Origin: Candidatus Latescibacterota bacterium | Lineage (GTDB): Bacteria; Latescibacterota; UBA2968; UBA8231 | Length of the DNA stretch: 64,000 nucleotides | Reading direction: 5' to 3' | Assembly: GCA_965243025.1 (NCBI GenBank) | Contig: CBDETY010000003.1 | Span: forward strand, 1,248,001-1,312,000 | Shown: positions 1 to 30,677 of the stretch, piece after piece | How the letters are laid out: the number at the start of each line of letters is the position of its first letter | Numbering within the stretch: position 1 is the first letter of the stretch | Made by a program: the position numbers and the translations under genes | Notes under the pieces: model-generated | Told to the model about the DNA's origin: nothing | The model's input: the letters and a program-made list of their open reading frames with translations, nothing else | Databases searched by the model: none

Positions 1-199
1 TCTCCTGGCGCCGGAGGATCTCGCCGAAGACGGCGGTGCCGTCGGCGAGCTCGAGCCGGGCGACGTCCCGGGGCCAGAAGAACCCCAGGCCGTTGACGGC
101 GACGACGGCGACGAGCCCGGCGACGATCAGCAGGCAGAAGGCCAGCGCACTTCCCGCCAGCCAGATGAAGGGGTCGCCGCTGCGCAGGAAGGCTTTCAT
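1..199 (-). CDS. pstA: Phosphate ABC transporter permease PstA, 5' part (runs off window)
   Basis: Manual translation MKAFLRSGDPFIWLAGSALAFCLLIVAGLVAVVAVNGLGFFWP...; ATG overlaps pstC stop (ATGA); position after pstS-pstC. Confidence 0.8.
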   Translation of the reverse strand, partial: MKAFLRSGDPFIWLAGSALAFCLLIVAGLVAVVAVNGLGFFWPRDVARLELADGTAVFGEILRRQE

Positions 200-2457
200 A
201 CCCGCCTGTACCTCTCCCGGAGGCGCTGGCGCACCCCTTCCGCCGCGGTGTTGAGCAGGAAGGTGACGGCGAACAGCAGCAGGCCGCTGAGGAACAGCAC
301 GCGGTAGAGGGAGCCCTCGTGGGGGGCCTCCGGCAACTCGACGGCGATGTTGGCCGAGATCGTGCGCATGCCGTTGAAGATCGACCAGTCCATGATCGGG
401 GTGTTTCCGGTGGCCATCAGCACGATCATGGTCTCTCCCACGGCGCGACCGAAGCCGATCATGGTCGCCGAGAAGAGACCCGGCAGCGCCATCGGCAGGA
501 CCACCCGGGTCGCGGTCTGCCAGCGGGTCGCCCCCAGCGCCAGGGAGCCTGCCCGCAAGTCCCGGGGGACGCTGGAGAGGGAGTCCTCGCAGATCGTGAA
601 GATCAGGGGGATTACCGCGAAGCCCATGGCGAAGCCGATGACGATGGCGTTGCGCTGGTCGTAGCGCACCCCGGTATCCCTGAGCCAGTGCTGGAATCCG
701 CCGTCGAAAAGCATGTTCTCGAAAGCCGGGCCGGCGGTCAGGGCGATGGCCGATCCGGCGGCGGTCACCGCTGTCAGAACCGCGAACTCGGCGTGAACCG
801 GCACCAGACGGCGCAGGCCGGGGGTGGAGTGCAACAGCCAGGAGGTCCCCGCTGCCGCCAGGGGCACGGTGCACAACAGGGCGGCGACACCGATTACGTG
901 GTGCTGCAGCAGGGGGGCGAGCCACAGTCCGGCGAGAAAACCGAGGATCACGCTCGGCAGCGAGGCCATGATCTCCACCGCCGGCTTGACGACGTTGCGG
1001 ATCCCGGGACGGGCGAACTCGGCGGTGTAGATGGCGGCGAGCACGGCCAGCGGCAGGGCGAAGAGCAGGGCGTATACCGTTCCTTTCACGGTGCCGAAGA
1101 CCAGCGGCACCATGCTGAGCTTCGGCTCGAACTCGTCGGTGCCCCCGGTCGACTGCCAGACGTATTCCGGTTCCGGGTAGCCTTCGTACCAGACTTTGCC
1201 GAACAGCGACCGCAGGCTGATCTCCGGGTGGGGATTCGAAAGCTCGAACAGGCTCACCTCACGGGTACCGCCGGCGAGGAAACCATCCGCTTTCGGGGCG
1301 CAGGAAATGGAGGCGACCGGGCCTGCCCCGGAGTCGATGTCGAAGAAGGTCTGTTCCGAAGTGGCGTGGTGCAGGGCGACCCGCCCGGATCTGGAGCCGG
1401 TGAGAAACTGCCTGTCCCGGGCGGAGGGAGCGATGCAGGTGATGGCGCTTTCCCGGGCCGGGAAGGTGTGGATCCGCCGGTACCTCCTCGCCCCGGACTC
1501 CCCGGGCTCGGGCACTTCGAACCAGACGCTCAACCCCCCCGAGGCGTCGCCGACGGCAAGCGACAGGTCGCCCAGCAGGAATTCGAGCGCCGTAACCGGG
1601 TGCTCCGAGACGCTCAGGGTCCGGGAATACCGCGGTGGGGTTCGGGGGCCTTCCAGGGACCACTCGATGATTTCCCCCGAGGCGGTCCCGGCCAGCAGCT
1701 GGCGCCCCGATCCGTCGACGACGACGCTGCTGGCGGGTGCCGGCAGCTGCCGGGTCAGGTCGTGAACTCCCCGGTCAACCACCTCGCCACGACCGGGGGG
1801 GCTGCGTCTCCAGGCGCTGATCACGGCCTGCAGTTCGCCCGCCGCGGAGATGCTGGCAAGCACCGATCTCGAGTCGCCGTCGCCGCGGTAGGAAAGCCGC
1901 AAGGGCGGGTCTCCGACTTCGTGCACCTGCAGCGGCGGGGAGAAGGAGACCTCCGGGGTAACGACGCGCCGGCCGTCGACGAACCCGATTTCGAAGCGGA
2001 TGGTTCCGGTCTGGACGCTCCCGTCGGACAGTCCGAGGGCGATCTGCCCGCCGCGGTGGCAGGCCGCGGTGACCAGCACCTTGCCGCTGTCGCGGGGGGC
2101 GACCCGGCGCTCGACCCTTCCGGAAGGAAGGCTCCGGAACTCCAATCCGTTCGGGACCACCGCGAAGGCGATTTCCCGGTAGGGATCGAGCCCCACCGCC
2201 AGCGGCGCTCCTGCCGGGGCCGGGATCGATCCGGTGCGGGCGATTTCCGCATCGCCGAAGAGCGGGTAGGTCTCCCGGGCGACGAACACGAAGATCCCCA
2301 GGACCGCGGCGATGATTCCGATGCCCCCGCCGGCAATGAGGCAGCCTCCGAGGCGGTCGAGAAGCCTGGCGCGTCGACCGACCCTCCCCCGGGACCCCGG
2401 CCCCCCGGGAGGGGACAGGGGACCCCGCGCCGGGTTATTTGGAGCCGGCTGTTTCAA
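196..2457 (-). CDS. pstC: Phosphate ABC transporter permease PstC with large beta-propeller-like insertion
   Basis: KPAVEIMASLPSV, GSLALGATRWQT, GRAVGETMIVLMATGN motifs; WYEGYPEPEYVWQSTGG typical of long PstC. Confidence 0.9.
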   Translation of the reverse strand: MKQPAPNNPARGPLSPPGGPGSRGRVGRRARLLDRLGGCLIAGGGIGIIAAVLGIFVFVARETYPLFGDAEIARTGSIPAPAGAPLAVGLDPYREIAFAVVPNGLEFRSLPSGRVERRVAPRDSGKVLVTAACHRGGQIALGLSDGSVQTGTIRFEIGFVDGRRVVTPEVSFSPPLQVHEVGDPPLRLSYRGDGDSRSVLASISAAGELQAVISAWRRSPPGRGEVVDRGVHDLTRQLPAPASSVVVDGSGRQLLAGTASGEIIEWSLEGPRTPPRYSRTLSVSEHPVTALEFLLGDLSLAVGDASGGLSVWFEVPEPGESGARRYRRIHTFPARESAITCIAPSARDRQFLTGSRSGRVALHHATSEQTFFDIDSGAGPVASISCAPKADGFLAGGTREVSLFELSNPHPEISLRSLFGKVWYEGYPEPEYVWQSTGGTDEFEPKLSMVPLVFGTVKGTVYALLFALPLAVLAAIYTAEFARPGIRNVVKPAVEIMASLPSVILGFLAGLWLAPLLQHHVIGVAALLCTVPLAAAGTSWLLHSTPGLRRLVPVHAEFAVLTAVTAAGSAIALTAGPAFENMLFDGGFQHWLRDTGVRYDQRNAIVIGFAMGFAVIPLIFTICEDSLSSVPRDLRAGSLALGATRWQTATRVVLPMALPGLFSATMIGFGRAVGETMIVLMATGNTPIMDWSIFNGMRTISANIAVELPEAPHEGSLYRVLFLSGLLLFAVTFLLNTAAEGVRQRLRERYRRV

Positions 2458-3415
2458 TCTTGGCCAATTCCTCCAGGAGGACTTCCAGGGGAATCGGCAT
2501 GTAGCCGTCCTTGACGACGATTTCCTGGCCTTCCCTGGAAAAAACGAAGCGGCAGAACTCGCGGATCATCGGGTCGAGCGGCTCGCCCGGCCGCCGGTTG
2601 ATGTAGAGGAACAGGTACCGACCCAGGGGGTAGGTTCCATCCAGGACGTTCTCGTAGGTCGCCTCCCTGAAGGGACCCTCTTCCCCGGCAAGGGGCACCA
2701 CCCTTACCCCGGAGGTGCGGTATCCGATCCCGCTGTATCCGATTGCGCTCAGCTCTTCGGTCACCCCCTGGACGACCGACGCGGACCCGGGCTGCTCCTT
2801 TACCGTGTCTTTGTAATCCCCCTCGGAGAGGGCGACTTTCTTGAAATACCCGTAGGTTCCCGAGGCGGAGTTGCGGCCGTAGAGGCTGATGGGCGCCCGG
2901 GCCCAGGAGCCCCCCAGGCCGAGCTGTCCCCAGCTGCTGATCTCGTCGGCAAGCCCTCCGCGCCTGGTTTTCGAGAAGATGGCGTCGACCTCGGCAAGGG
3001 TGAGCCCGGCGACCGGGTTGTCCTTGTTGACGAAGAGGGCGACGGCATCGAGGGAGGTGCGCAGGGGAGTCGGTTCGTACCCGTACTTCGCCTCGAATCT
3101 GTCGACCTCGGTCGGCTTCATGGCTCGCGACATCGGCGCGAACTGGGCGGTGCCCTCGATAAGGGCCGGGGGAGCGGTACTGCTGCCCTTTCCTTCGATC
3201 TGAATGGTGACCGAAGGGTAGTATCTGCGGAAACCCTCGAGCCACAGGGCCATCAGGTTGTTCATCGTGTCCGAGCCGATGCTGCCGGCGCTTCCCGAGA
3301 TACCTCTGGCCTTCTCGTACGGTCCTACCCCGGAATCGATCTGGATGGTGCCCGACAGGGAGGCCTGTGCCCCGACAAGCAGAAGCAACGCCGCCGGAAG
3401 GGATCTCCGTAACAT
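2435..3415 (-). CDS. pstS: Phosphate-binding periplasmic protein PstS
   Basis: Signal peptide from ATG 3415 (GAGGGG RBS); GSDTM, GKGSSTAPPAL, YGRNSASGTYGYF, YPLGRYLFLY motifs. Confidence 0.93.
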   Translation of the reverse strand: MLRRSLPAALLLLVGAQASLSGTIQIDSGVGPYEKARGISGSAGSIGSDTMNNLMALWLEGFRRYYPSVTIQIEGKGSSTAPPALIEGTAQFAPMSRAMKPTEVDRFEAKYGYEPTPLRTSLDAVALFVNKDNPVAGLTLAEVDAIFSKTRRGGLADEISSWGQLGLGGSWARAPISLYGRNSASGTYGYFKKVALSEGDYKDTVKEQPGSASVVQGVTEELSAIGYSGIGYRTSGVRVVPLAGEEGPFREATYENVLDGTYPLGRYLFLYINRRPGEPLDPMIREFCRFVFSREGQEIVVKDGYMPIPLEVLLEELAKIETAGSK

Positions 3416-3460
3416 TGCCCCTCGATCAGAACTGGTTGCAGGAAAGGGAGCTGCGGTCGC

Positions 3461-3510
3461 TGTAACAATCAGAAAGGAATTTGTTACAGAAATGTTACAC
3501 AAATGTTACG
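3461..3510 (-). promoter_or_regulatory. Pho-box-like operator upstream of pstS
   Basis: Three TGTTAC direct repeats at 11-bp period (3482, 3493, 3504) plus an inverted TGTAACA at 3461. Confidence 0.7.
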
Positions 3511-3569
3511 CTTTTTTTAAGGCGCACGGATCCCTTCCGAAAGCCGGGAGCGGGGGGTAAGTCCCCAGA

Positions 3570-6182
3570 TCAGTAGACGACGTGAACGAGCCGGTGGGCA
3601 GTCGTCGCCGTGGCCGATTCGGAATCGGTGTTCACCTCGATGCGGGCGATGTAAGTCCCGGGGGGAGTGACGGTTCCGGAGGCGTCGCGCCCGTTCCACG
3701 TCATCGTGTAACTGCCCCTTGGGTCGGTGCGTTTCTCGATCAGCTCCTCGACGACGGCACCGCGAAGGTCGAAAACGGTGAGCGCGACGGTCTGCACGGC
3801 GCTGATCCGGGTAACGCTGAAGTCGAAACTCACTTCGTCGTGGATGCCGTCTCCGTTCGGGGTCAGCACCCGGTTGCCGGCCTCGAGATCGCGGATTACC
3901 TGGTTGCCCTCCAGGGCCAGCACGGTCGTGGTCTGGCTGTCGACGAGATCGGTGGCGTCTCCGGGGTCGACCCGCTGCCAACCCGGCGAGCGCGAATTCT
4001 GTCCGGCGGCCCTGAATGACGTACTGGTGGAATAGGTGGTCGCCAGAAAGCGCACTTCCACCAGTTCGACGCGGCGGTTCAAAGGTTCGGGAAAGCGAAA
4101 CCGCAGGCTTCCGGGAGGAGAATCGATCACCTCCAGATCCGGCAGTTCGAATACCGTTTCCCCACCGAGCCCGAAGTCCCCGTCGCTTCCGGCGCGCGCC
4201 TCGACGAGCTCGAGGGTTGCGTCCCCACTCGCCTCTATCCTGATCTCGTCGAACACCTGCCGGGAGGAGCCGAAGAAGGGACGCAGGAAGAAGGATAGTT
4301 CTCCGGGCCTGCCCAGCTGGTCGATCAGGGTCGGTGAGACTTCCCCGATCAGCCGGTCGGCGACCGGGTCGGAGAGATTCACCTGGATGGAGTGCAGGCG
4401 GGCGGCCTCATGCGGGTTCCCGGACAGGACCGACGCCCTGATCTGCATGTACTGACGGGGGCTGGGGGAAGTGATTTCAGCTCCCTTCCGCACGTACGGA
4501 ACGCTCCACGGGCTCCAGTCCCCTGACGGCTCGAACCGGGTTTCGATATCTCCCCGCTTCGACTTGGGCAGCCGGTCGTAGCGGCTCCCGGAGATGACGT
4601 TGCCCCCCGAGTCGTAGTAGACGCTGGTCTCGTCCAGGGTGTCGCCCGACCGGGTTCGCAGCTGCACGCTGGTTCCCGGAGGGGTATCGGCCTCCCATTC
4701 CAGCGACAGCAGGTTCTTGCTGCTGTCGAGAAGTATCAGGTCGGAGGTCAGCTCGACGCCGGCCACGAACCCCTCCCCGTATACCAGCATTTCGAGGATG
4801 CCCCACCACAGCTTCCGGTTCATGAAGCGTCCGAAATTTCCGAAGGGAGCCCTGATGTAGCGGGCGGCGACGGGCTCCATCGAGAACTGGAAATACTTCG
4901 CCCTGTTGTCGGCCGCAGGAATCTCCTGCAGGGCGCCGGCGACGCTGTTTCCGGCCACCCGCGTCCAGGCGAGACCGCCGTCCGGGGTGCGCGACCCGTC
5001 GGAGACCTCGACGGAAAGCTCGTCGATGCCCCCTTCGCCGTCGTTGAGGAACTGCACGGTTTCGATCCAGTAGTGGGCCCCGAGGTCCACGAGTATGTGG
5101 TAGACGAGACCGCCGAAAATGGTGCCGTTGTGCCCGGTCGAGTACATCCCGTCGGAAATGGTGTTGCCGAGGTTCTTCGGGGTCGGGGAGTCGATCTCCA
5201 CGGTCGCGAGTCCGCCGCGCCGGGCGAGGCCGAACAGGAGATTGTCGCCAACCGTCCAGGCCTCGACCTCGGCCAGGCGGGGCAGCTCCCTCCGGTAGTA
5301 CCGGATCCGTCCCCGTCTCTCCGGTGCAAGGTCCCCGAATTCCTCCTCGGTTACCGCTGTTTCCCTGCCGGAGGGTTCGCTCCGGAAATACTCGACCGCT
5401 CCTTTGCTGCCGGCGGGCAGCAGCTCGTAGGCTTCGGCCGGCACCTCTTCGGCGCGGTCGAGGTCGCTGTCGGTGACGACCACACGGATCTTCTCGAGGG
5501 CGTCGCCGGCGAAGCCGCCCCTGGTAACGATGGTGCGGTGGCCCACTCCGCCGGACTGGGACCTCGGTGCCGGGAAGTATTCGAAGACCCGCCGATCCTT
5601 GTTGGGGCGGTCCGTCCTGCCGATTTCCCAGTAGTTGGGAACGCTGGTGCCGTCGAGGTAGAAATCGGGAGCCGACACCGGGGGAGGAGTGTGCCAGAGC
5701 AGGACCTTGAACTGGTTGAACGGGTCGCCGTCTCCCTCCCCGGCGAAGCGAAGAACGATCCGGTCGACGACGACGATGCGCCCCAGGTTGACCTCGACCC
5801 ACCAGTTTTCCCGGCCGCTGTCGAGATCGGGGCTCCAGGCGGTGTTCATGTCACCGTCGATGAGGAAGCGCGCATTTCCGGGGTTGGAGCCGGCCGTCGC
5901 TCCGCCCTGGTTGTCCTCGGTCGCGAATTCCGCCGCTTCGAGGGCGGCATTGACGTTCTTGCGAATGAACCGCGGCCCGACGGATCCGGAGGGGGAGATC
6001 TCGACAGTCCCGCCGGCAACCTCCCAGGCACCCCAGTGGGAGCTGCGGTCGACGACGATCCGGTTTCCCGCAACGAGGTGGCCCTGCTGTGCCTGGGAGC
6101 TCCAGGCGCAGAAGAGGCAGAGACAGGCTGCCGCGAATGCAACCGGCAGGCGCGGCAAGCGGGGTGTGCCTGGGTGTGTCAT
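3570..6182 (-). CDS. Large secreted protein with discoidin/F5-8-like modules and C-terminal FlgD-Ig/T9SS-like domain
   Basis: AAGGAGG RBS, signal peptide, LIDGDMNTAW and WWVEVNLG motifs, C-terminus TPNGDG...VFDLRG...WNGRD..G...PGTY. Confidence 0.75.
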   Translation of the reverse strand: MTHPGTPRLPRLPVAFAAACLCLFCAWSSQAQQGHLVAGNRIVVDRSSHWGAWEVAGGTVEISPSGSVGPRFIRKNVNAALEAAEFATEDNQGGATAGSNPGNARFLIDGDMNTAWSPDLDSGRENWWVEVNLGRIVVVDRIVLRFAGEGDGDPFNQFKVLLWHTPPPVSAPDFYLDGTSVPNYWEIGRTDRPNKDRRVFEYFPAPRSQSGGVGHRTIVTRGGFAGDALEKIRVVVTDSDLDRAEEVPAEAYELLPAGSKGAVEYFRSEPSGRETAVTEEEFGDLAPERRGRIRYYRRELPRLAEVEAWTVGDNLLFGLARRGGLATVEIDSPTPKNLGNTISDGMYSTGHNGTIFGGLVYHILVDLGAHYWIETVQFLNDGEGGIDELSVEVSDGSRTPDGGLAWTRVAGNSVAGALQEIPAADNRAKYFQFSMEPVAARYIRAPFGNFGRFMNRKLWWGILEMLVYGEGFVAGVELTSDLILLDSSKNLLSLEWEADTPPGTSVQLRTRSGDTLDETSVYYDSGGNVISGSRYDRLPKSKRGDIETRFEPSGDWSPWSVPYVRKGAEITSPSPRQYMQIRASVLSGNPHEAARLHSIQVNLSDPVADRLIGEVSPTLIDQLGRPGELSFFLRPFFGSSRQVFDEIRIEASGDATLELVEARAGSDGDFGLGGETVFELPDLEVIDSPPGSLRFRFPEPLNRRVELVEVRFLATTYSTSTSFRAAGQNSRSPGWQRVDPGDATDLVDSQTTTVLALEGNQVIRDLEAGNRVLTPNGDGIHDEVSFDFSVTRISAVQTVALTVFDLRGAVVEELIEKRTDPRGSYTMTWNGRDASGTVTPPGTYIARIEVNTDSESATATTAHRLVHVVY

Positions 6183-22109: not shown

Positions 22110-23161
22110 GTGCTGACTCCGCTCTTCGGGCGCCTGCGGCCCTTCGTCCGCTGCATCGGGACCCACGGACACGCGGTACTGGCGGGCGCCCTCCTGCTGA
22201 CGCTGGCCTGTACCCCGCTGGCCCTGCGCCTGGAGATCGACGCCGAGCTCTCCAACCTGCTGCCCCCGGATTACCCCACCATCCAGGCGCTCGAGCGCCT
22301 GCGCGAGACCATCGGCGGCGGGGAGGACGTCGCCGTTGCCGTATCGAGCCCGGATTTCGCCGCCAACCGCGCCTTCGCCGAGACCCTGATTGAGGCCGCC
22401 ATGAGGCTGCGCTCACCCGAAGGCGAGCCCTGCTTCAGCCGCTTCGAGTACCGCCGCGACACCGGGTTCCTCGAGCGCAACGCCCTCTACTTCGCGACCG
22501 GCGAAGAGCTCGATGCCCTGGAGGAGTATCTCGACGTGCGGCTGGCGCGGGCGCGGCTCGAATCCAGCCCCCTCTACTTCGACCTGGAGGAGGGTGGAAA
22601 GTCCGGGGAGGACTCCCTGGCGCGGCGCCTGGAGAGTACCTACGGCCGCCTCGTCCCCGGGGAGTACCCGGTTTCGCCGGACAGCACGGTGCTGGCGGTG
22701 AGGTTTCACCCCTCGGTGTCCCAGACCGACTTCGAGCAGATCCGGCAGGTTTACGCCGCCCTCGACTCGCTGGCCGCCGCCCTTGAGCCGGAAACCTTTC
22801 ACCCCGCCATGGAGGTCACCACCGCCGGCCGCCTGCTGCGGCGGCTGCACGAGATCAGGGCGATCTCCAGCGATGTCGGACGTTCGTTCGGGGCCGGGGT
22901 GCTCGCCGTCCTGGTTGCCGTGGTGCTCTACTTCTCCTGCAAGTCGTATGCGCCCTCGCCGGGGAGGTCCCGCGCCGCCAGCCTTGCCGCCATTGTCGGG
23001 CGAATGCCGGTATTGGCGGTCGTAATCGGTCTGCCCTTCCTGATGAGCCTGAGCTGGACCTTTGCGGTTACCTACCTGTGGCTGGGCGGGCTCAACCTGA
23101 TGACTTCGACACTGGCGCTGCTTCTGTTCGGGCTGGGAATCGACTACGGGATACACTTTTA
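22110..23161 (+). pseudogene. MMPL/RND lipid exporter, 5' half (interrupted by IS1595 element)
   Basis: Ends at LLFGLGIDYGIHF exactly at the target duplication. Confidence 0.9.
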
Positions 23162-23185
23162 GGAACTTATACCGGTGGGTTACGG
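23162..23185 (+). repeat. Terminal inverted repeat (left in window)
   Basis: GGAACTTATACCGGTGGGTTACGG. Confidence 0.95.
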
Positions 23186-23269
23186 AAGCTGATTTCTTAG
23201 CTTTCAGCTTCCCGGCGTGAGAGCCGAAAAAAAGGGCCTCAGGGAAACACTTTGAAGGGGAGATGTCCT

Positions 23270-23569
23270 ATGGCCGCTTACCAGACATTTCATCAGGCAT
23301 ATGATGAAGCCATTCTGAGAATCGGATGGAAACAGATACAGAATGGAGCAGCCGCATTTCAGGAGGTGGAATTAGAGATAGAGTCCGTATTAGTTTCAGA
23401 ACTACGATCTCATAAGAAGGCTCGTTTTATCGAGGTCAATAATGCGTTAATGATTCAGCTGACTGATGACGGGAAAAACGCCTTTATTGCATTGGCAATG
23501 GAGCGGAAACAATCAGCTGATCAGTACACAGAAAAGAGCTTGATGGAGGCTCTCTTACTCACCTCCTGA
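23270..23569 (+). CDS. Hypothetical passenger protein
   Basis: AT-richer ORF with GGGGAG upstream. Confidence 0.55.
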   Translation: MAAYQTFHQAYDEAILRIGWKQIQNGAAAFQEVELEIESVLVSELRSHKKARFIEVNNALMIQLTDDGKNAFIALAMERKQSADQYTEKSLMEALLLTS

Positions 23570-23767
23570 TTCTTCCTCACCTTCCGTGCCGCTTCTGTCA
23601 CCTTGTATCCGCTCGATCTCTAACAGCTTCAAGCAGAGATCGATACGTTGATTAAGACAGTTACTCGGATCCGCGATGAACTTTTTCAGATCCATCTTTA
23701 GGCTGAGTACTGCCGCATCTGTGCTGAGTGACGGTTGTTCTTTTTTGCTGGTTTCCACTTGAATCAT
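23555..23767 (-). CDS. Hypothetical passenger protein (70 aa)
   Basis: AAGGAG RBS before ATG. Confidence 0.55.
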   Translation of the reverse strand: MIQVETSKKEQPSLSTDAAVLSLKMDLKKFIADPSNCLNQRIDLCLKLLEIERIQGDRSGTEGEEESGGE

Positions 23768-23781
23768 TCTCCTTGAGCGTG

Positions 23782-23816
23782 AAAAACGTCCCTCCGCGCA
23801 GGAGCAGAGGGGCGTT
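23782..23816 (-). terminator. Terminator-like hairpin
   Basis: Minus strand AACGCCCCTCTGC-loop-GCGGAGGGACGTT followed by TTT. Confidence 0.5.
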
Positions 23817-23843
23817 GGTGTTTTCGATTCGCGTCAGGTTGAC

Positions 23844-24152
23844 CTATTTCAGGCGCCGGTAGAAGCCATCCTGAATCATCTCGATTTTACCCTGACGTGG
23901 AAGTTGTCGAGTCAAAACTTCTGAAAGAGAATTATATGGGTTCTCTGCTCTTGATTTTGTCTTTTTCAAAATCCTGTCAAACCGAACCCTGACCTTGAGA
24001 TCGGCAGCATAGAAAGTGCACCCGCAGGGTACGAAACTCACGATTTCATCCCATACGGCTTGTTTCCATGAGATTCTCTTTTCAGACTGGCTCATCTTGC
24101 TCGGTTCCGCCTCCTTCCCGGTTCCGGTTCGGCGAATCCGCTCACCGGTCAT
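23844..24152 (-). CDS. Hypothetical basic passenger protein, possible winged-helix
   Basis: SWKQAVWDEI...NSLSEVL.RQL..QGKIE....G.YR pattern. Confidence 0.5.
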   Translation of the reverse strand: MTGERIRRTGTGKEAEPSKMSQSEKRISWKQAVWDEIVSFVPCGCTFYAADLKVRVRFDRILKKTKSRAENPYNSLSEVLTRQLPRQGKIEMIQDGFYRRLK

Positions 24153-24193
24153 GACCGGTCAGGGATCGCCAGCAAGCCGGTGGGGTTCCCCCT

Positions 24194-24433
24194 CTATGTA
24201 GATATGGATACGGAAAGGAATGATCCAGATCGGCTTGGATGTATTATCAATAAATTTGCTTCATGCGGTTTTCGATCTATGTGATGATTCCACTCATCGA
24301 TTCCGGACTTGATGGTGGCCGGGGTCAGGAGGCGCCAGCTTTTCTGGTCAGCCACCATCTCGCGGAGGGAATTGCTCTTCCTTGACTTGAAATCTTCCCC
24401 TCCTACCAGAATTTCAGCATAACAAAGGTCCAT
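24194..24433 (-). CDS. Hypothetical passenger protein (79 aa)
   Basis: Part of tightly packed minus-strand ORF run. Confidence 0.4.
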   Translation of the reverse strand: MDLCYAEILVGGEDFKSRKSNSLREMVADQKSWRLLTPATIKSGIDEWNHHIDRKPHEANLLIIHPSRSGSFLSVSIST

Positions 24434-24738
24434 CTAAGCCACTCGGATAGGGATTTTCGTCTAGAAAGACGTGGGTTAGGGGATAGTATGTTAGGTTCCT
24501 CGCATAGCCTACGGATAAGACTCATGTCTTTTGTGATCGTCTCATTGAGGAGGTGTAATGATTCCCTAGGCATACCCGATCCATTATCTTCCGAAGCTAG
24601 GCCAATGGTGTTTCTAAGGTGAGATTGGATGTCCTCAGTTGACATGCCTCTGCTCTTAAAGTCTCTGGCACACATTAGAGCAACGATAATTCTAAGAGAG
24701 TATATGTGTGCCAGTAGCTGATGTTCTTGACATGACAT
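24403..24738 (-). CDS. Hypothetical passenger protein (111 aa)
   Basis: Starts 3 bp after upstream ORF stop; GAGG upstream. Confidence 0.5.
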   Translation of the reverse strand: MSCQEHQLLAHIYSLRIIVALMCARDFKSRGMSTEDIQSHLRNTIGLASEDNGSGMPRESLHLLNETITKDMSLIRRLCEEPNILSPNPRLSRRKSLSEWLRWTFVMLKFW

Positions 24739-24741
24739 ATA

Positions 24742-24996
24742 TCATACCTCTGGTATGTTAAATTCATCCACTATATTCTGTACTGGAATGTCTCTGTTAA
24801 TACACCACTCAACGGCCGATTGCGTTGTGAAAAGAACTTTCCAACTATTCGTCCTATCTTGAGTCAAATAATAGATGTTTCCTCTGGATCGGTACCGAAA
24901 TAGCTTTTCGAGTTTGGTGGAACATGTGTCTATGGGTTCCGCATTCTCGGTGTTAAAAGCCATCTGTCCGTCAATAGTCTCTCCGATTATTTTCAT
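24742..24996 (-). CDS. Hypothetical passenger protein (84 aa)
   Basis: GAGGGAG RBS before ATG. Confidence 0.6.
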   Translation of the reverse strand: MKIIGETIDGQMAFNTENAEPIDTCSTKLEKLFRYRSRGNIYYLTQDRTNSWKVLFTTQSAVEWCINRDIPVQNIVDEFNIPEV

Positions 24997-25005
24997 AATA
25001 CTCCC

Positions 25006-25287
25006 TCAGTCTCGTAGATCCGGGACCACAGCGGCGACTCTCGCCGCTATTCCAGTCTGACGGCCCAGAGCGGATAGCTCGCTCAGGGCCTTCTGGCGTT
25101 TCTGCTCCGCCCGATTGCAAGACATGGCTACCTGATGGATTTCTTCATGGTATGGACGCGAGAGGAGATGGGCGAACTCCGGCTTGCGGTTAGTGTCATG
25201 CACAATCCACGACCGCGCTCTTCCAGTTACCCGGTAGCTAACCTGAATCGCCATCAGCCGGTCCTTTCGATCCTTCTGAGGTGTCAT
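25006..25287 (-). CDS. Hypothetical passenger protein
   Basis: Co-oriented; internal ATG preceded by AAGGA is a possible start. Confidence 0.45.
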   Translation of the reverse strand: MTPQKDRKDRLMAIQVSYRVTGRARSWIVHDTNRKPEFAHLLSRPYHEEIHQVAMSCNRAEQKRQKALSELSALGRQTGIAARVAAVVPDLRD

Positions 25288-25441
25288 CTGGCCGATTGGG
25301 CTTACGCAGCGACGGATCTGGCGGGTTGGCGGTGGCGAAGATGGCCTGAGCCAGCTCCTCCGGGGTGCAGTCGATCTTCAGGCGCCACTCAGGGCGGCCC
25401 TTCTGCTTGGCGCTGTCGTCTGAATCTGCGCGGTCAGTCAT
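25238..25441 (-). CDS. Small hypothetical passenger protein
   Basis: LKIDCTPEELAQAIF core; co-oriented with neighbours. Confidence 0.45.
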   Translation of the reverse strand: MTDRADSDDSAKQKGRPEWRLKIDCTPEELAQAIFATANPPDPSLRKPNRPDDTSEGSKGPADGDSG

Positions 25442-25462
25442 GCTCGGAAATTACCCCCCGGC

Positions 25463-26293
25463 TCATTCTGGGTCAATTACGAAAGCGTCGTAGGAGACGG
25501 GCAGGCTGACCCGCTGGCCTACGGCCTGAAGATGCTCTATTCCATTAGAAGGTTCTTCTGTGAATCCGAGCGGCTCCCACATGGCTGCGGAGTCCCGGAC
25601 CATGATGACGGCCCGCCCGTCAGGGGCCAACATCATGTGGATCTTGTCCACGTCCTTTGCGCTCAGGAGTCCGTCATGGCCGTGCAACACGAGGATCTGG
25701 TCGTACGGCTCCGTGGGATACCAGTGACCGAATGAGCAGTTGTGCAGCCGATCTGCGAATAACGGGTTCCTGCTGGCGCACACGCGGAGCATGTTTTCCG
25801 ACAGGTCGATTCCGCAGTAGTTCTGGGGTCGGATGTCCGGGCAGTTTCTCAGTAACCAGCCGGTGCCGCAGCCTACGTCGAGGATGCGCTGGCCGGTCAG
25901 ATCGCCCAACAGGGCCAGGAGGGGCTCGCCTCCGTGGTCATTAACCATTGCCTGATCGTACTGGTGGGCAACCTCATCATATGGCGTCTCGTAGTGCATC
26001 CGGGCGCGATTCAGGATGGTGGTTTTGGCTGGCGGCCATCCCATCGTCCAGTAGTAGTGCCCGTTCAGCGTCAGGCTGCGGTAGTACTGGCGATTACCGT
26101 ACCTGCGCCGGTAGCCGTAGGTCTGGACCATCTCCACGACTTCCTCGAACTCGTCCTCCGGCCAATTCACCCTGACGGTGTAGAAATGAGGTTTTTCGGG
26201 TATCGTCTTGGCGAATCGGAACGAGGCCGCGCCTACCAGCTCGGCCACCCGGAAAAGGCGCTCATGACTAATGGTGGGATCATTATCGAACAT
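25463..26293 (-). CDS. Class I SAM-dependent methyltransferase fused to an unknown N-terminal domain
   Basis: ILDVGCGTG, GIDLSENML, LAPDG; AAGGA RBS. Confidence 0.8.
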   Translation of the reverse strand: MFDNDPTISHERLFRVAELVGAASFRFAKTIPEKPHFYTVRVNWPEDEFEEVVEMVQTYGYRRRYGNRQYYRSLTLNGHYYWTMGWPPAKTTILNRARMHYETPYDEVAHQYDQAMVNDHGGEPLLALLGDLTGQRILDVGCGTGWLLRNCPDIRPQNYCGIDLSENMLRVCASRNPLFADRLHNCSFGHWYPTEPYDQILVLHGHDGLLSAKDVDKIHMMLAPDGRAVIMVRDSAAMWEPLGFTEEPSNGIEHLQAVGQRVSLPVSYDAFVIDPE

Positions 26294-26318
26294 GGCTGAT
26301 TCCTTGATAGGGGAAGGA

Positions 26319-26900
26319 CTACCCGGCCAGCAGAATGCCCAGATAACTGCCGTATCGGATCAGTCCATCGGGGTCCGTGATGACGATCTTGCCATCGGAA
26401 ATTTCACACGTCGGGGCCGTCTGGAAGGACGAGGCGAACAGCTCGCCCCAGGCACCAAACTCCATCCAGTTGGAGCCGCCTACATCGTCGTACCCGGTTA
26501 CGTCGACAATGTCCTCTGAGACCCTGCTGCGTTCCAGATAGACGCCGAGGATATTGTCTTCCGAGAAGTTTTCGTTCGTGATGGTCCAGGATCGGGCCCC
26601 TCGACTGTTCCCGGAACCCGCGTGAAGTCCTACTTCGATGAAGGCGAACAGATTCCCAAAGGTAGTGGTAGTACTGCCGGTATCGACCGCTACGGTGTCG
26701 TAAACCGTGACGGTGTTTGTGTCTGGATTATCGCCTTGGTAGACGACAGTTTCACCGGTGATATTGATCACCACACAGGCGGTGGTATCGGCGGCTTGTT
26801 CGGCGGTGGTCTTGGGAGAGGTGGCCGGGCCCATCGGGCCCTCGGGGCCCTGACAGGCCGACAGCAGGTAGGCGGCGAGCAGGATGGCTGAATACTGCAT
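26319..26900 (-). CDS. Lipoprotein with short collagen-like start
   Basis: Lipobox LSAC then QGPEGPMGPA; AAGGAG RBS. Confidence 0.7.
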   Translation of the reverse strand: MQYSAILLAAYLLSACQGPEGPMGPATSPKTTAEQAADTTACVVINITGETVVYQGDNPDTNTVTVYDTVAVDTGSTTTTFGNLFAFIEVGLHAGSGNSRGARSWTITNENFSEDNILGVYLERSRVSEDIVDVTGYDDVGGSNWMEFGAWGELFASSFQTAPTCEISDGKIVITDPDGLIRYGSYLGILLAG

Positions 26901-27189
26901 GGTCCCTGTCTCCTTGAGGCGGGTGGGTTGACCCCGGCTCCGCTGTGGGGCCGGGCCTTGTCAAGCCTACACGCCAAGAGACAGCGGGAAGGATCCTGCT
27001 ATTCGCCAGCTGAGAGGTAGCTAGCCCCCCAGCTCGGATGGTACGGCTGTTGTATTCACAGGAGACCCGACATCAGGGACCTCCTGACGCATAGACTTGA
27101 CGGGTGGTAATTTGCAGCCTGAGCGGCTGGCCATCAAGTCAATTCTGCGCTAATTGCTTATTCCAGCTTGTGTTAGGTGGTTGATCTCG

Positions 27190-28356
27190 TCAGATCGCGA
27201 TCCCCCGCTCGCCCCCGGTCAGCTCGTCATATCGAAGACGCTTTCCGGTCATACCTCGGGCGAGAACCACCATCATCTCAATCGTGTCCTTGTCGCGGAT
27301 GTTATGACGGCCGGCGAACTCGTTCAGGTATCGCTGCAGGTGCTTGAATGACATACGGAAGAAAGTACCTCCATAAGCCCGTTTCAGCACCGCCCAGTAT
27401 CCCTCGGCGGAGTTGGTATGCGCCATGCCCCGGACGTATTCCCCGACACCGTGATTCACGGACTCATGGTTGGGGAGCCCCTTGTAGCCGTGGTGCTGAT
27501 CGGTGTACTTCTTGGCATTCGGCTTGACGTTCGCCATCACCTGAGCCTGAAGCGTGATGGCCGTCACGTCAGGCACCGTTACGGCCCGGATTTCATTGGT
27601 TTTCCGATCCACGATTGCGACGACCGCCTGTTTGCCCACCGTGCCGCGCCCTTTCCGTAGCTTCTTGCGAGCGTGCTTGTTGGGCTCCTTGCCGCCGAAG
27701 TAGCTCTCGTCAATTTCCACCGGACCTTCCATCAGCTCGCCGGTGTTTTTCACGAATGCTTCCCGGATGCGGTGCATCAGGAACCAGGCACTCTTGTACG
27801 TGATTCCAAGGTGACGGCGTACCTGTATGGCGCTCACACCTCGCAGATGAGTGGTCACCAGAAACAGGCCGATTGCCCACTTCTGGTACCCCAACTTGGA
27901 GCCCTCCATCACGGTACCCTTTTTCACCGAGAAAAACTGATGACAGTCCCGACACCGATACGGCATTTTCGGGTGCTTCGAAACCGAGGTGCTGACCGAT
28001 CCGCAGGCCGGACAATACCGCTGGTCATTTGGCCACCTCTGCTCCTCGAACCATTTCTCCGCCGCCTTGTCGTCAGGGAACATGCGCATCAGTTCAGGGA
28101 GAGTAATCCCCTTGCGGTAGGCCCGTCCGGGTCCCTTGGAGCTATAGTTTGTCGGAAACTTGCTCATATCGGTATATGCTCGCTCATCGTCGTAATAAAT
28201 ATCAGCCATTATCCGCTTTTTGTCAAGGTCTAAGTCGTTGTTTTCAAAGAGTTTAGGCTTAAGGAGACGGTGAGGGATCGCCCTGGTGGGCTCTGGCGGT
28301 ACACCCGGTGAATTGGGCTTGACAACTCGTTTCTTAGTCCTGAACTTAGTACGCAT
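27190..28356 (-). CDS. IS1595-family transposase (alternative start 28167)
   Basis: Zn ribbon CPACG...YRCRDC, HTH KSAWFLMHRIR, catalytic VEIDESY, YTD, HTNSAE; AAGGAGG before ATG 28356. Confidence 0.95.
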   Translation of the reverse strand: MRTKFRTKKRVVKPNSPGVPPEPTRAIPHRLLKPKLFENNDLDLDKKRIMADIYYDDERAYTDMSKFPTNYSSKGPGRAYRKGITLPELMRMFPDDKAAEKWFEEQRWPNDQRYCPACGSVSTSVSKHPKMPYRCRDCHQFFSVKKGTVMEGSKLGYQKWAIGLFLVTTHLRGVSAIQVRRHLGITYKSAWFLMHRIREAFVKNTGELMEGPVEIDESYFGGKEPNKHARKKLRKGRGTVGKQAVVAIVDRKTNEIRAVTVPDVTAITLQAQVMANVKPNAKKYTDQHHGYKGLPNHESVNHGVGEYVRGMAHTNSAEGYWAVLKRAYGGTFFRMSFKHLQRYLNEFAGRHNIRDKDTIEMMVVLARGMTGKRLRYDELTGGERGIAI

Positions 28357-28589
28357 AACGCCCTCCTTACTGTAGGTGGGTGGAGGTCAGCAAAAAGCTC
28401 ATCCCGCGAATCGAGAGTGGCTTTCTGCTGACTGTGGATGCGAGAAGTAACGGAATCAGCCGATCTGGTCGTCGTCAGCGACCTGATCGGCTTTTTTCGT
28501 GCTTCTCGTCGAAATTCACATACAATATACATATCCCGCTGGGTTTCCGCAGGGGGCGGGATACTTCCACATATGACTGGGTACTGAAA

Positions 28590-29063
28590 ATGGATGCTCT
28601 CAAACCCTTTAGCGATGTCCTCGTTTCGCTACTGCCCGAATCCGATTCAGGCAAAATAATCTGGCTGATTGTTTTCGGTCTTTTCGTCTTGATTGTAACT
28701 GGACGTCTGAAATTGGAATGGATTGGACAAGGGATTCTATGGATCGTACAAGTCGTTATACGGATTGCAAAACACTTTTGGAGCCAAGCACAGAACAGGA
28801 AGGAACGAGAACGGATCAGGCGTCAACAGGCACGGGATAGTAGGGAACAACAACGGATCAAGCGTCAATATTGTTCAATTGGAAGACATTTCTTCCAAGG
28901 GATAGAGGGGATTAGGACTGTGACTTTTACTTGTAGATTCTGTCGGATAGAAAAGAAATTTGGCGAAATCGAATTTGATGAAGATTTTGAGTGGTGTTCC
29001 TATGGCCTTGAGGGGTCCGGGTGGGGTACATTGAAAGACCATGATGCCACCAAGGGTAGCTGA
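28590..29063 (+). CDS. Hypothetical membrane protein with coiled coil and C-terminal C...H...CxxC motif
   Basis: Two hydrophobic helices, R/Q/E-rich helix, CSIGRH...CRFC. Confidence 0.55.
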   Translation: MDALKPFSDVLVSLLPESDSGKIIWLIVFGLFVLIVTGRLKLEWIGQGILWIVQVVIRIAKHFWSQAQNRKERERIRRQQARDSREQQRIKRQYCSIGRHFFQGIEGIRTVTFTCRFCRIEKKFGEIEFDEDFEWCSYGLEGSGWGTLKDHDATKGS

Positions 29064-29141
29064 ATACCTGTGGGCTGTTAATCCGGAAAATCGACCATCT
29101 GAGCAGGGTAACATCAAAGCCAAAAGCTAAGAGTCATTCAC

Positions 29142-29165
29142 CCGTAACCCTCCGGTATAAGTTCC
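29142..29165 (-). repeat. Terminal inverted repeat (right in window)
   Basis: Reverse complement GGAACTTATACCGGAGGGTTACGG. Confidence 0.95.
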
Positions 29166-30677
29166 CACTTTTACGCGCGCTATGCCGAGGAGCGGGGCAA
29201 TGGCCTGGACGTGCCGGCCGCCATCGAGGTCACCTTTGCGAGCACGGGGCAGGCGATAGCGGTCGGGGCCATGACCACCGCGGGGGGCCTCGCGGTCCTG
29301 GTGGTGGGGGACTTCAGGGGATTCAGCCACTTCGGGCTGATTGCCGCGGTCGGAATCGGGTTCGCCCTGCTGGCGATGATCGTCGTGATGCCGGCGCTGG
29401 TGGCGGTCTGCGAGCAGCTGGGGCTGTTGTCCCTTGGCCTCCGCGCCCGGGACCAGGCCCGGGTACCGGGAAACAGCCGCTTTCCCCTGGCCGGCCTGGT
29501 GACCGCGGCGGCCCTCGTCTCGGTCCTGGTTGGAATCCTGGCGTTTCCGAGAACCGAGTTCGAGTACCGGTTCGGCGAGCTGGAGCCGGTATACGGCGAA
29601 TACAACAAACGGCGGGACAGGGTTCGGCAGGTATTCCCGCCCGCAGGGACACGCAACCAGGCCTACATCATCGCCGATTCCCCTGCGCAGGCGGCCGCCG
29701 CCGCCGCGGCCGTGAGGGAGCGCGCGGCGGCCGACACCCTGACACCGACCATCGCCGGGGTCGCCACCCTGCAGGACCGCTTTCCCGTGGAGGCCGCCGA
29801 ACAGCAGCGGAAACTGCGGCGCATCGCCGCCATCAGGGAGCGGCTCGAGGAGCCGTTGCTGCGGGCCGCCGGCGGTGAGCAGCTGCGCCGCCTGCGCGTC
29901 GCCGCCCAGACCCGGACCCCGCTGTCCTCCGACGACCTTCCCGCCTCCCTGAAGGACCCCTTTCTGACCAGGACCGGGGAGATCGGACACTTCGTGCGCA
30001 TCTCCCCGTCCGTGGGACTTTCGGACGGCCGCAACTCCATCGCCTTTCTCGAGGATGCCGGGACGGTGCGGAGCGCCGACGGAACGGTCTTCCACGCCGG
30101 CTCCCCCGCCCTCGCTGCGGCCGCGATCCTCCGGCGCGTGCGCGGCGAGTCCCCCTGGATGGTGGCCGCCTCGGCGATCCTGGTGACGCTGCTGATGTGG
30201 CTGAACTTCACCTCGCTGCGCTGGGCGGCGGTCGCCCTTTTGCCCCTTCTGGTAGGCGTCCTGTGGATGGTGACCGCCATGGCCGTTTTCGGCCTGCGCC
30301 TGAACTTCTACAACATGATCGTGCTGCCGGCGGTCCTCGGGATCGGCAACGACGCCGGGGCCCATCTCGCCCACCGCTACCGGGAGGAAGGCCCCGGCTC
30401 CATCCGGCGGGTGCTCGCCTCCACGGGGGAACACATCAGCGTCGGCTCGCTGACGACGGCGATCGCCTTTGCCGGCCCCCTGCTGAGCTTCCACCCCGGT
30501 CTTCGAACCATCGGAGTGCTGGCGATTACCGGCCTGGCGGCGACCTGGCTGGCCGCCCTCGTGGTGACCCCGGCGGTCCTGCAGTTCCTGTCCGACCGCG
30601 GGCAGTTGCCCGGGTTCAACCCGCGGAGGGAACCCGGTTCGGACGGCTCCCCGGACGCGGCCGGGAATCCCGCCTGA
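29166..30677 (+). pseudogene. MMPL/RND lipid exporter, 3' half
   Basis: Resumes in frame HFYARYAEE...TGQAI..GAMTT...FRGFSHFG; second repeat LGIGND.GAH. Confidence 0.9.

Follow-up and report, generated by a model that had tools for sequence, protein, structure and literature searches.

A probable transporter IS of the IS1595 family with cargo in three places in a Latescibacterota-type genome

The window analysed here is a 64,000-nucleotide stretch from a Candidatus Latescibacterota bacterium, and at 23162-29165 it contains a 6004-bp element with a single IS1595-family transposase, lying within an MMPL-family gene. The features of the locus, with strand and the basis of each reading in brackets, are as follows.

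22110-23161, plus strand: 5' part of the interrupted MMPL-family gene (restored frame; orthologue in the sister species G001)
23154-23161: left copy of the target duplication, CACTTTTA (single copy in the uninterrupted G001 orthologue)
23162-23210, plus strand: left end, with the 24-bp terminal inverted repeat (IRL) at 23162-23185 and subterminal TCTTAGCTTT at 23195-23204 (repeat search)
23270-23569, plus strand: 99-aa orphan ORF, GC 44%, convergent with the rest (ORF list)
23555-23767, minus strand: 70-aa ORF, doubtful as a gene (no library match, no tblastn homologue)
23844-24152, minus strand: 102-aa ORF, whose product is probably 83 aa long, starting at the Met at 24095 (one homologue)
24194-24433, minus strand: 79-aa ORF, doubtful, overlapping the next ORF by 31 nt (no NCBIfam, PHROG, PADLOC or tblastn match)
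24403-24738, minus strand: 111-aa orphan ORF, GC 44% (no Pfam, NCBIfam, PHROG or PADLOC family)
24742-24996, minus strand: 84-aa orphan ORF, GC 40%, closing the low-GC left block (GC step at about 25000)
25006-25287, minus strand: 93-aa orphan ORF, GC 58%, overlapping the tail of the backbone small gene (ORF list, profile and tblastn searches)
25238-25441, minus strand: 67-aa backbone protein with the motif [KR]GRP..R.I.ID.TPEE.A.AIF..PDPSLRK (its gene stands last in relatives, ahead of the transposase-distal inverted repeat)
25463-26293, minus strand: class I SAM-dependent methyltransferase, 276 aa (Pfam Methyltransf_23/25)
26319-26900, minus strand: predicted lipoprotein, 193 aa (N-terminus MQYSAILLAAYLLSAC read as signal peptide and lipobox)
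27190-28356, minus strand: IS1595-family transposase, 388 aa (Pfam/NCBIfam profiles; AAGGAGG 6 nt before the ATG)
28443-28512, plus strand: long hairpin with a U6 run, conserved, lying between the start of the transposase gene and the right cassette (folding)
28518-29117, plus strand: right variable cassette, GC 45%, with a 157-aa ORF at 28590-29063 (homology break against the G001 element)
29117-29165, minus strand: right end, with subterminal motif and 24-bp terminal inverted repeat (IRR) at 29142-29165 (83% identical to the G001 element end)
29166-29173: right copy of CACTTTTA (8-mer comparison)
29172-30677, plus strand: 3' part of the interrupted MMPL-family gene (Pfam MMPL; restored frame)

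The two terminal repeats agree at 23 of 24 positions and TCTTAGCTTT occupies positions 34-43 counted from either tip, in accordance with the first-pass annotation, which had reported 24-bp repeats with one mismatch and a shared motif further in. The 8-bp duplication it described is likewise present on both sides of the element, and in silico deletion of 23162-29173 gave the predicted single open frame of 851 aa, containing GIDYGIHFYARYAEE. The C-terminal half of the interrupted gene matches Pfam MMPL (8.6e-21), and the N-terminal half alone matched no Pfam family. A scan with the 24-bp inverted repeat for relic internal ends, allowing up to 8 mismatches, found, besides the genuine ends, only two chance matches with 8 mismatches.

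The genome contains a second full copy at G000:C3:666353-672356, 100% identical across all 6004 bp and ending at the same bases. It is located in an intergenic spacer, 605 kb from the MMPL copy, and is flanked by its own, different 8-bp repeat, AAAAAATA; an identical second copy with a different duplication means that the element is not a chance arrangement. In a genome-wide search with the 14-nt repeat tip (at most 3 mismatches) the only full ends among the matches listed were the four of these two copies; solo ends may occur as well. Segmental duplication could in principle also give two identical copies, against which speak the different 8-bp direct repeats at the two sites.

Empty sites, for which a search had been suggested, were found in two sources. 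The flanks of the MMPL orthologue in G001 abut at one shared 8-mer, and in run X6, from another study, two contigs skip exactly 6012 bp, from 23153 to 29166, one of them matching the window sequence over 353 nt except for 1 letter and 1 gap. At the second insertion site no element was found in G001 or G002. The earlier view of a recent insertion stands, as the identity of the copies (0 differences) and the empty sites in G001 and X6 indicate that the element entered the MMPL gene recently; it evidently moves whole as one unit, cargo included.

In the short-read runs X1, X4 and X5 (three runs, two studies) the element was recovered as its own unitig, 23160-29165, with 0 differences. Flank unitigs in these runs enter the element by 28-30 nt only, short of the 31-nt bridging rule, so short-read support for the junctions is indirect. 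These data bear on a reading of the 6 kb as an assembly artefact, or as a compact tIS into which separate mobile elements have nested, which would suit the sharply uneven composition, with GC steps at about 25000 and 28518. We regard it as very improbable: the two genomic copies are identical to the same end bases, the unitigs reproduce the element in all three runs, and the low-GC blocks have no bounding inverted or direct repeats, with no second transposase or integrase inside.

The transposase gene lies 809 bp inside the right end with ORFs on both sides, consistent with the earlier description of one intact transposase about 1 kb from one end. Its product matches PF12762 DDE_Tnp_IS1595 (3.4e-33, 115 bits; cut-off 27), PF12760 Zn_ribbon_IS1595 (9.3e-08, 32.4 bits; cut-off 25.4; residues 94-139) and NCBIfam NF033547 (174 bits; cut-off 75). 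C115, C118, C135 and C138 are invariant among 13 transposase homologues, and D216, D286, N315 and K325/R326 are invariant in the transposase alignment. The DDE domain, zinc ribbon, 8-bp duplication and short terminal repeats by which the IS1595 family is recognised are all present, as are the two marks of a transporter IS (tIS), namely passengers inside the inverted repeats and transposition of the whole unit.

The IS1595 subgroups have names including ISNha5, ISNwi1+ and ISPna2+, and the largest group reaches about 7.9 kb. Other IS1595 subfamilies also occur in the same genome. The tIS of this family were reportedly described by Siguier, Gagnevin and Chandler in 2009. In passages of three later texts (PMC3129680; bioRxiv 10.1101/2021.05.26.445724; PMC11891212) passenger-carrying IS1595 elements figure as a described category, for which all three cite Siguier et al. 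2009; since such tIS are already described, calling the cargo element unusual was overstated. The window element resembles them in its one IS1595-type DDE transposase, short terminal repeats, 8-bp duplication and passengers that move along inside the inverted repeats. It differs in having three cargo regions, distributed to either side of the transposase, with 11 extra ORFs, and in its transposase, which is 38-58% identical to the homologues found, with the exception of a same-genus copy at 75%.

Composite and Tn3-family transposons share with it the passenger genes and target duplications. A composite transposon, already dismissed in the first-pass annotation, does not fit one transposase gene moving as one unit between ends that are 24-bp repeats, with no flanking IS pair or long terminal repeats; for a Tn3-type transposon, no large TnpA, resolvase or 5-bp duplication was found. 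Whole-element blastn against plasmid records gave only 61-91-nt matches within IS1595 transposase genes, in 31 records. We consider the window element very probably an autonomous, currently active IS1595-family tIS built on a cargo-swapping backbone in a Latescibacterota-type genome; an element with the same cargo may already be named in ISfinder. It is a clean and datable case, from an uncultured phylum, in which an element with one transposase moves 5 kb of genes unrelated to transposition, and the filled and empty sites are both available.

At the level of sequence comparison, the backbone is demonstrably conserved across relatives: an inverted repeat, the transposase, a cargo slot, a basic protein of about 55 aa with a GRP motif, belonging to no known family, and the other inverted repeat follow in constant order. 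This arrangement is common to relatives of 2.5-3.1 kb in several phyla. L036, L039, L041 and L040 (2458-2977 bp) have inverted repeats and perfect 8-bp duplications, the latter being present in four of the five relatives with both ends located, and in L036, L039, L040 and L042 the small gene stops 30-60 bp short of the distal repeat. The 67-aa ORF at 25238-25441, formerly counted as a passenger, has to be reassigned, the relatives showing it to be a conserved backbone gene.

The family of the small protein comprises 95 clusters, none with a Pfam domain. When it was used as a query, an IS1595 transposase was found upstream on the same strand at two of three metagenome loci (the third contig being too short) and at six of 13 places in the phylum's genomes (three full length, three fragments). 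At the other seven places no transposase lies upstream on the same strand within about 6 kb: five have none at all, one has a convergent full-length gene and one a weak opposite-strand fragment. The small gene was not detected in L035, L037, L038 or L041, the L035 contig ending 1.6 kb past the transposase; given these deviating elements and the seven places, not every member of the clade has the backbone.

Pairwise identities of small protein and transposase are correlated (r = 0.88; 21 non-independent pairs from 7 elements). The structure model of the small protein is one helix with pLDDT 70.8 and so gives no fold-based support for DNA binding; a predicted complex with the transposase scored 0.14, the mark for giving an answer being 0.32. 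We infer that the small protein is an accessory or regulator of transposition and not cargo. The IS1595 family is not known to need more than its transposase, and the small protein, if a transposition factor, would be an added component for the family.

Comparison of close relatives shows clean replacement of the contents of the cargo slot. Two blocks alone are common to L070 and L072, that of the transposase (1044 bp, 91%) and that of the small gene (134 bp, 91%); the intervening 1.4-1.8 kb is unrelated even by tblastx. The window element and that of G001 have the end and transposase region in common and differ in their right cassettes, homology breaking off at 28517 and restarting at 29118. 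Restriction-modification genes often occupy the slot: pairs of DNA methyltransferase and restriction genes occur in relatives whose transposases are 46-58% identical, and a SocA/Panacea module occurs in the same-genus copy (75% transposase identity). The relatives offer a testable tIS layout, with a conserved module at each end and an exchangeable middle, and connect this IS1595 clade with the spread of genes for restriction-modification and toxin-antitoxin systems.

Compact restriction-modification units with imperfect inverted repeats and 8-bp duplications, including one in Neisseria that contains a gene with a transposase motif, are described by Furuta, Abe and Kobayashi 2010 (PMC2853133). 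L039, L042, L040 and L072 are of the same type, with an IS1595 transposase. The window element differs in having no recognisable restriction-modification genes, and the paper assigns its units to no backbone with a conserved small gene.

A wider reading is possible, if rather doubtful: the GRP-motif protein would be an undescribed accessory or regulator at the adjacent inverted repeat and would define cross-phylum IS1595 plug-in carriers, in which fixed transposase and small-gene/repeat modules enclose a slot that takes up one set of genes after another, be they restriction-modification, toxin-antitoxin or others. On this reading the element would be an expanded form with two extra cargo sites opened beside its ends, and its low-GC six-ORF block a new, as yet unrecognised conflict or defence module.

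The cargo of the window element falls into three regions: the usual slot, with the lipoprotein and the class I methyltransferase; a low-GC right cassette of 600 bp adjoining the right end; and a low-GC left block of 1.8 kb with six orphan ORFs adjoining the left end. GC per ORF is 40-49% in both end blocks and 56-62% in the core, the host standing at 65-68%. No repeats or recombination sites were found at the edges of the low-GC blocks, and blastn of the left one against phage records matched nothing. The earlier count of about ten unknown passengers holds roughly, there being 11 non-transposase ORFs of at least 67 aa; among these are one recognisable methyltransferase, the backbone gene, and the 70-aa and 79-aa ORFs, which lack support as genes. 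In searches of Pfam, NCBIfam, PHROGs and PADLOC the passengers yielded the methyltransferase domain only.

The methyltransferase matches only Methyltransf_23/25/11/12 in Pfam, and its 85 relatives, five of them close, bear generic names only. It has a conserved N-terminal domain of about 100 aa without known family in profile and fold searches. Its structure model (pLDDT 90.6) has small-molecule and lipid methyltransferases as nearest folds, headed in Foldseek by phosphatidylethanolamine N-methyltransferase 8ys9_B (E 3.5e-08, TM 0.50/0.65), the others being natural-product methyltransferases; the fold comparison once proposed for the passengers gave matches that are generic for class I and did not help with the N-terminal domain. 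The neighbouring lipoprotein has no family in Pfam, NCBIfam, PHROG or PADLOC.

Our best guess for this pair is that it acts on a small molecule or a lipid of the envelope; in a fuller reading the 157-aa membrane protein may take part, the modification confers a niche advantage and the orphan block hitch-hikes. The lipoprotein signal and the top fold agree with such a role, as does retention of the pair in the corresponding place of the G001 element (57% amino-acid identity for the lipoprotein, 86% for the methyltransferase) and of the methyltransferase in G002 (82%). We nevertheless find it unlikely, considering that the generic fold matches name no substrate, that the N-terminal domain has no known relative, and that the copies of the pair in both relatives are broken by other IS, which argues against strong selection for it.

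A role as an anti-phage or addiction module driving the spread of the element draws its support from relatives. Among 11 elements with a transposase (or fragment) and the small gene whose slot was examined, the window one included, five have a Pfam DNA-modification gene there (L039, L042, L040, L043, L072), four of them together with a restriction endonuclease (ThaI, MvaI/BcnI, PvuII-like, EcoRI-like); L041 has a methyltransferase-HNH fusion. In the same-genus element, which has a Cas3 gene 286 bp away, a gene with a SocA/Panacea antitoxin domain is accompanied by a 168-aa partner that stands where the window element has the 157-aa ORF. For the window element itself this role is improbable. 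None of ten scanned proteins (67-aa and 70-aa ORFs left out) matches a PADLOC defence model, the sole match below 0.001 being the generic methyltransferase-domain mad2 (1e-08), so a defence role of its own cargo is not supported. The methyltransferase has no readable DNA amino-methyltransferase motif and its nearest folds lie elsewhere, as noted; Pfam, NCBIfam and PHROG profiles revealed no nuclease, ATPase or toxin-like domains, and type II restriction-modification cargo (N6_N4_Mtase/N6_Mtase plus endonuclease) was not found by profiles. The suggestion of a vehicle for accessory or defence genes is therefore borne out for the clade, with its restriction pairs and SocA/Panacea module, and not for this element's own passengers.

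In the mechanism we propose for the tIS, a single DDE transposase, with zinc ribbon and IS1595 catalytic domain, would recognise both 24-bp inverted ends and insert the unit, all 6004 bp of it, at AT-rich targets of 8 bp that become duplicated. One such insertion split the MMPL transporter gene and another gave the identical intergenic copy 605 kb off. Cargo blocks would be exchanged between conserved backbone segments, most simply by homologous recombination among related elements; the lipoprotein-methyltransferase pair in the usual slot is old in the genus, and two lower-GC, apparently foreign blocks have been added, one beside each end.

The orphan genes are candidates for new accessory functions. 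The 99-aa ORF has no significant Pfam, NCBIfam or PHROG match, and its tblastn matches are the two copies only; Atlas recognition of the 111-aa ORF stayed under its mark, with nothing usable. Judging by one match (P0181) in 1.84 billion representatives (59% identity over residues 26-102, E 4.8e-18), the 102-aa ORF evidently encodes a real, very rare small protein, possibly a winged-helix one; an Atlas look-up of 0.88 to a DpnI_C HTH cluster is a lead, not evidence. For the 157-aa ORF, with its predicted membrane helices, no homologue was found among 12 candidates at E <= 0.001. Promoter and terminator scans gave site numbers not above those of shuffled sequences, and the Rfam search had no match at E <= 0.1. 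The right cassette contains a 42-nt tandem duplication (repeat D1), and the hairpin at 28443-28512 folds at -44.7 kcal/mol (z -7.8) and is kept in the G001 element.

An IS1595-family element of 6004 bp occupies positions 23162-29165 and splits a gene of the MMPL family. Its features are listed below, the end repeats having been checked by script.

Features of the element (window positions)
23154-23161 and 29166-29173: the 8-mer CACTTTTA, flanking the element on each side
23162-23185: left end, GGAACTTATACCGGTGGGTTACGG, matching the reverse complement of 29142-29165 at 23/24 positions
Positions 34-43 from the tip, both ends: TCTTAGCTTT
Plus strand: 99-aa ORF, converging from the left end
25238-25441, minus strand: 67-aa ORF
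25463-26293, minus strand: methyltransferase, 276 aa
26319-26900, minus strand: predicted lipoprotein, 193 aa
27190-28356, minus strand: transposase, 388 aa, the sole transposase gene of the element, with AAGGAGG 6 nt before the ATG
28443-28512: long hairpin of 26 pairs with a U6 run (-44.7 kcal/mol, z -7.8), situated between the start of the transposase and the right cassette
28590-29063, plus strand: 157-aa ORF, pointing to the right end and divergent from the transposase

The first-pass annotation had described near-identical 24-bp terminal repeats with an 8-bp duplication, and had claimed that removal of the element restores an 851-aa MMPL frame. Both descriptions hold: CACTTTTA stands on either flank, and in silico excision of the element with one copy of the 8-mer leaves a single open frame of 851 aa with a Pfam MMPL match (8.6e-21) in its C-terminal half.

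The transposase matches PF12762 (3.4e-33), PF12760 (9.3e-08) and NCBIfam NF033547 (174 bits, cut-off 75), and its four zinc-ribbon cysteines, D216, D286 and N315 are invariant across 13 homologues. The short inverted repeats and the 8-bp duplication are consistent with IS1595, and all testable features of IS1595 elements and of transporter IS (tIS) were found in the element. Classification as a composite transposon was tried and rejected, as the element fails the tests for that class. Passenger-bearing IS1595 elements form an established category, the transporter IS, according to passages of PMC3129680, bioRxiv 10.1101/2021.05.26.445724 and PMC11891212, and the kind of element is thus already known. 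What appears to go beyond the textbook picture is a layout of backbone plus slot, together with a small protein and a hairpin that are both conserved; the small gene may have been described before.

Two copies of the element are present in its own genome, each 100% identical over positions 1-6004 (blastn). The second (G000:C3:666353-672356) lies within an intergenic spacer and carries its own flanking repeat, AAAAAATA, on either side, so the 6 kb is mobile as a single unit. Both targets are AT-rich (A/T at 6/8 and 8/8 positions) in a genome of 65% GC. In G001, a genome of the same genus, the orthologue of the MMPL gene is uninterrupted, with 85% nucleotide identity; there the left flank runs up to L077:1501 and the right one, including the 8-mer, begins at 1508, and the flanks therefore overlap by one single 8-mer. 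The second insertion site is without the element in G001 and in G002, another genome of the genus, its spacer being diverged in both.

Sequencing runs were looked at as assembled contigs. In X1, X4 and X5, which come from two studies, a separate element unitig covers 23160-29165 with 0 differences (in two pieces in X5), and the flank unitigs extend 28-30 nt into the element, just short of the 31 nt required for bridging. A de Bruijn graph yields an overlap of this size when one repeat has two distinct flanks. These three runs gave no empty-site contig, which says little, since contigs lose rare variants. Empty-site junctions, which the first-pass annotation had suggested looking for, were found in X6, from a third study: the element is almost uncovered, and two contigs join 23153 to 29166, skipping exactly 6012 bp. 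One departs from the window by just 1 other letter and 1 gap in 353 nt, and the second, with 32 other letters, has diverged further; a near-identical, element-free population therefore exists. With 0 differences between the two copies over 6004 bp, the last transposition event is very recent, and the MMPL site, empty in G001 and in the X6 contigs, bears out the earlier reading of a recent insertion. The element contig of X5 (6043 nt) runs 214 nt past the right end into off-window sequence, which is compatible with the known second site or with some further insertion in that sample.

All except two of the ORFs form a single tight array on the minus strand, in the order transposase, 193-aa, 276-aa, 67-aa and 93-aa ORFs, then ORFs of 84, 111, 79, 102 and 70 aa. 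The element has 53% GC, its flanks 67-68% and the main contig 65%, and within the element GC falls into three blocks: 40-49% from 23162 to about 25000, 56-62% over 25006-28517 and 45% in the 157-aa ORF, which occupies most of 28518-29117. This ORF contains a 42-nt tandem duplication (28785-28868, copies 79% identical) encoding a repeated basic segment.

The division into backbone and slot is seen in related elements. L070 and L072 share a transposase block (1044 bp, 91%) and a small-gene block (134 bp, 91%), and the intervening 1.4-1.8 kb is unrelated at the DNA and translated levels; L069 shares these blocks alone with each of them. The slots have the following contents by Pfam.

Slot contents of related elements (Pfam)
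L039: N6_N4 methyltransferase and ThaI
L040: Mom and a PvuII-like gene
L041: methyltransferase-HNH fusion
L042: methyltransferase and MvaI/BcnI
L043: methyltransferase and an unknown gene
L072: N6_Mtase and an EcoRI-like gene

Pfam gave no informative families in the slots of L036, L047, L048, L065, L069 and L070. Judged by its Pfam-recognised slot contents, the clade often carries restriction-modification genes. This agrees with PMC2853133, which reports transposon-like restriction-modification units that have 8-bp duplications. In L040, a 2.46-kb element, the Mom-family DNA-modification gene (7.4e-14) stands beside an opposite-strand PvuII-like endonuclease gene (L040:10936-12115).

The 67-aa ORF matched by tblastn loci that had been chosen for the transposase alone (transposases 46-58% identical), in MAGs labelled Acidobacteriota, Dadabacteria, Burkholderiales, Albidovulum and 'bacterium'. 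Both ends were located in five relatives (L036, 2699 bp; L039, 2780 bp; L041, 2977 bp; L040, 2458 bp; L043, 3090 bp), all except L043 with perfect 8-bp duplications. In L036, L039, L040 and L042 the small gene comes last, ending 30-60 bp before the transposase-distal inverted repeat; the L043 copy has a stop codon, and L041 showed none. Members of the family have the motif [KR]GRP..R.I.ID.TPEE.A.AIF..PDPSLRK. A profile search gave 95 clusters of 43-95 aa, with no Pfam domain among them, the few named ones being annotated as hypothetical. When metagenome loci were searched for the small protein first, a same-strand upstream transposase was found in two of three, the third contig being too short to tell. 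Within the phylum, matches came from 11 of 168 genomes, counting G000, with 13 places outside G000: six have a same-strand upstream transposase (3 full length, 3 fragments), one a convergent transposase, one a weak opposite-strand fragment and five none. Small-protein and transposase identities correlate at r = 0.88 (21 pairs, 7 elements), a value driven by one close trio among pairs that are not independent. The monomer is modelled as a single helix within an extended chain (pLDDT 70.8). Because of its position, its orientation toward the inverted repeat and the way it varies together with the transposase as the cargo is replaced, we infer that the small protein belongs to the transposition backbone and is not a passenger.

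As to the element's own cargo, the methyltransferase is of class I (Methyltransf_23/25), with 85 relatives bearing generic names only. Its conserved N-terminal domain (~100 aa) has no match in Pfam or PDB; the model is confident (pLDDT 90.6), and the predicted fold is closest to lipid and small-molecule methyltransferases. The remaining ORFs fell into no family in Pfam, NCBIfam, PHROGs or PADLOC searches. A search of 1.84 billion representatives gave a single homologue, with 59% identity, for the 102-aa ORF, which is therefore a real gene; profile and homologue searches gave no support to the 70-aa and 79-aa ORFs as genes, and the homologue search detected none for the 157-aa ORF. PADLOC recognised no known defence system among the ten proteins of the element that were scanned. 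By analogy, a defence role for this cargo is possible.

When 61 genomes, among them G000, were searched at the DNA level, matches outside the transposase were confined to G001 and G002. The G001 element (L034), with a transposase 75% identical to that of the window, is homologous over element positions 2608-3132, 3258-3311, 3519-5356 and 5957-6004, and shares the lipoprotein (57% aa) and the methyltransferase (86% aa over residues 1-184), within which it is interrupted by an rve-type IS, the remainder missing. G002 keeps the methyltransferase (82% aa) and what is left of the 67-aa gene, into which an IS66-family element has inserted. The lipoprotein-methyltransferase core thus goes back a long way within the genus. 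The cassette between right end and transposase differs: where the window element has its 157-aa ORF, G001 carries a SocA/Panacea-domain gene (2.2e-15) together with a 168-aa neighbour. The hairpin is conserved in G001 above its surroundings, and homology ends directly after it; its possible roles are those of insulator or terminator, antisense-RNA element and recombination boundary. No counterparts of the two low-GC blocks were found by the 61-genome DNA search, by tblastn or, for the left block, against phage records. The truncated G001 element is separated by 286 bp from a Cas3 gene (Cas3_HD 4.5e-33), and an SNF2-family helicase gene follows (L034:5491-8103, L034:12472-13416). The G002 remnant (L044:6004-9290) adjoins a DDE_Tnp_1 transposase.

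Elsewhere in G000, tblastn gave 25 further matches to IS1595-type transposases, including 57546-58439 (minus strand) of the window and more than 20 other places on G000:C3, mostly 38-51% identical to the transposase of the element. One of their subfamilies has no inverted repeat evident just upstream of the transposase gene. The subfamilies have common blocks of 1.2-4.4 kb, with 85-96% nucleotide identity, which are longer than a bare IS.
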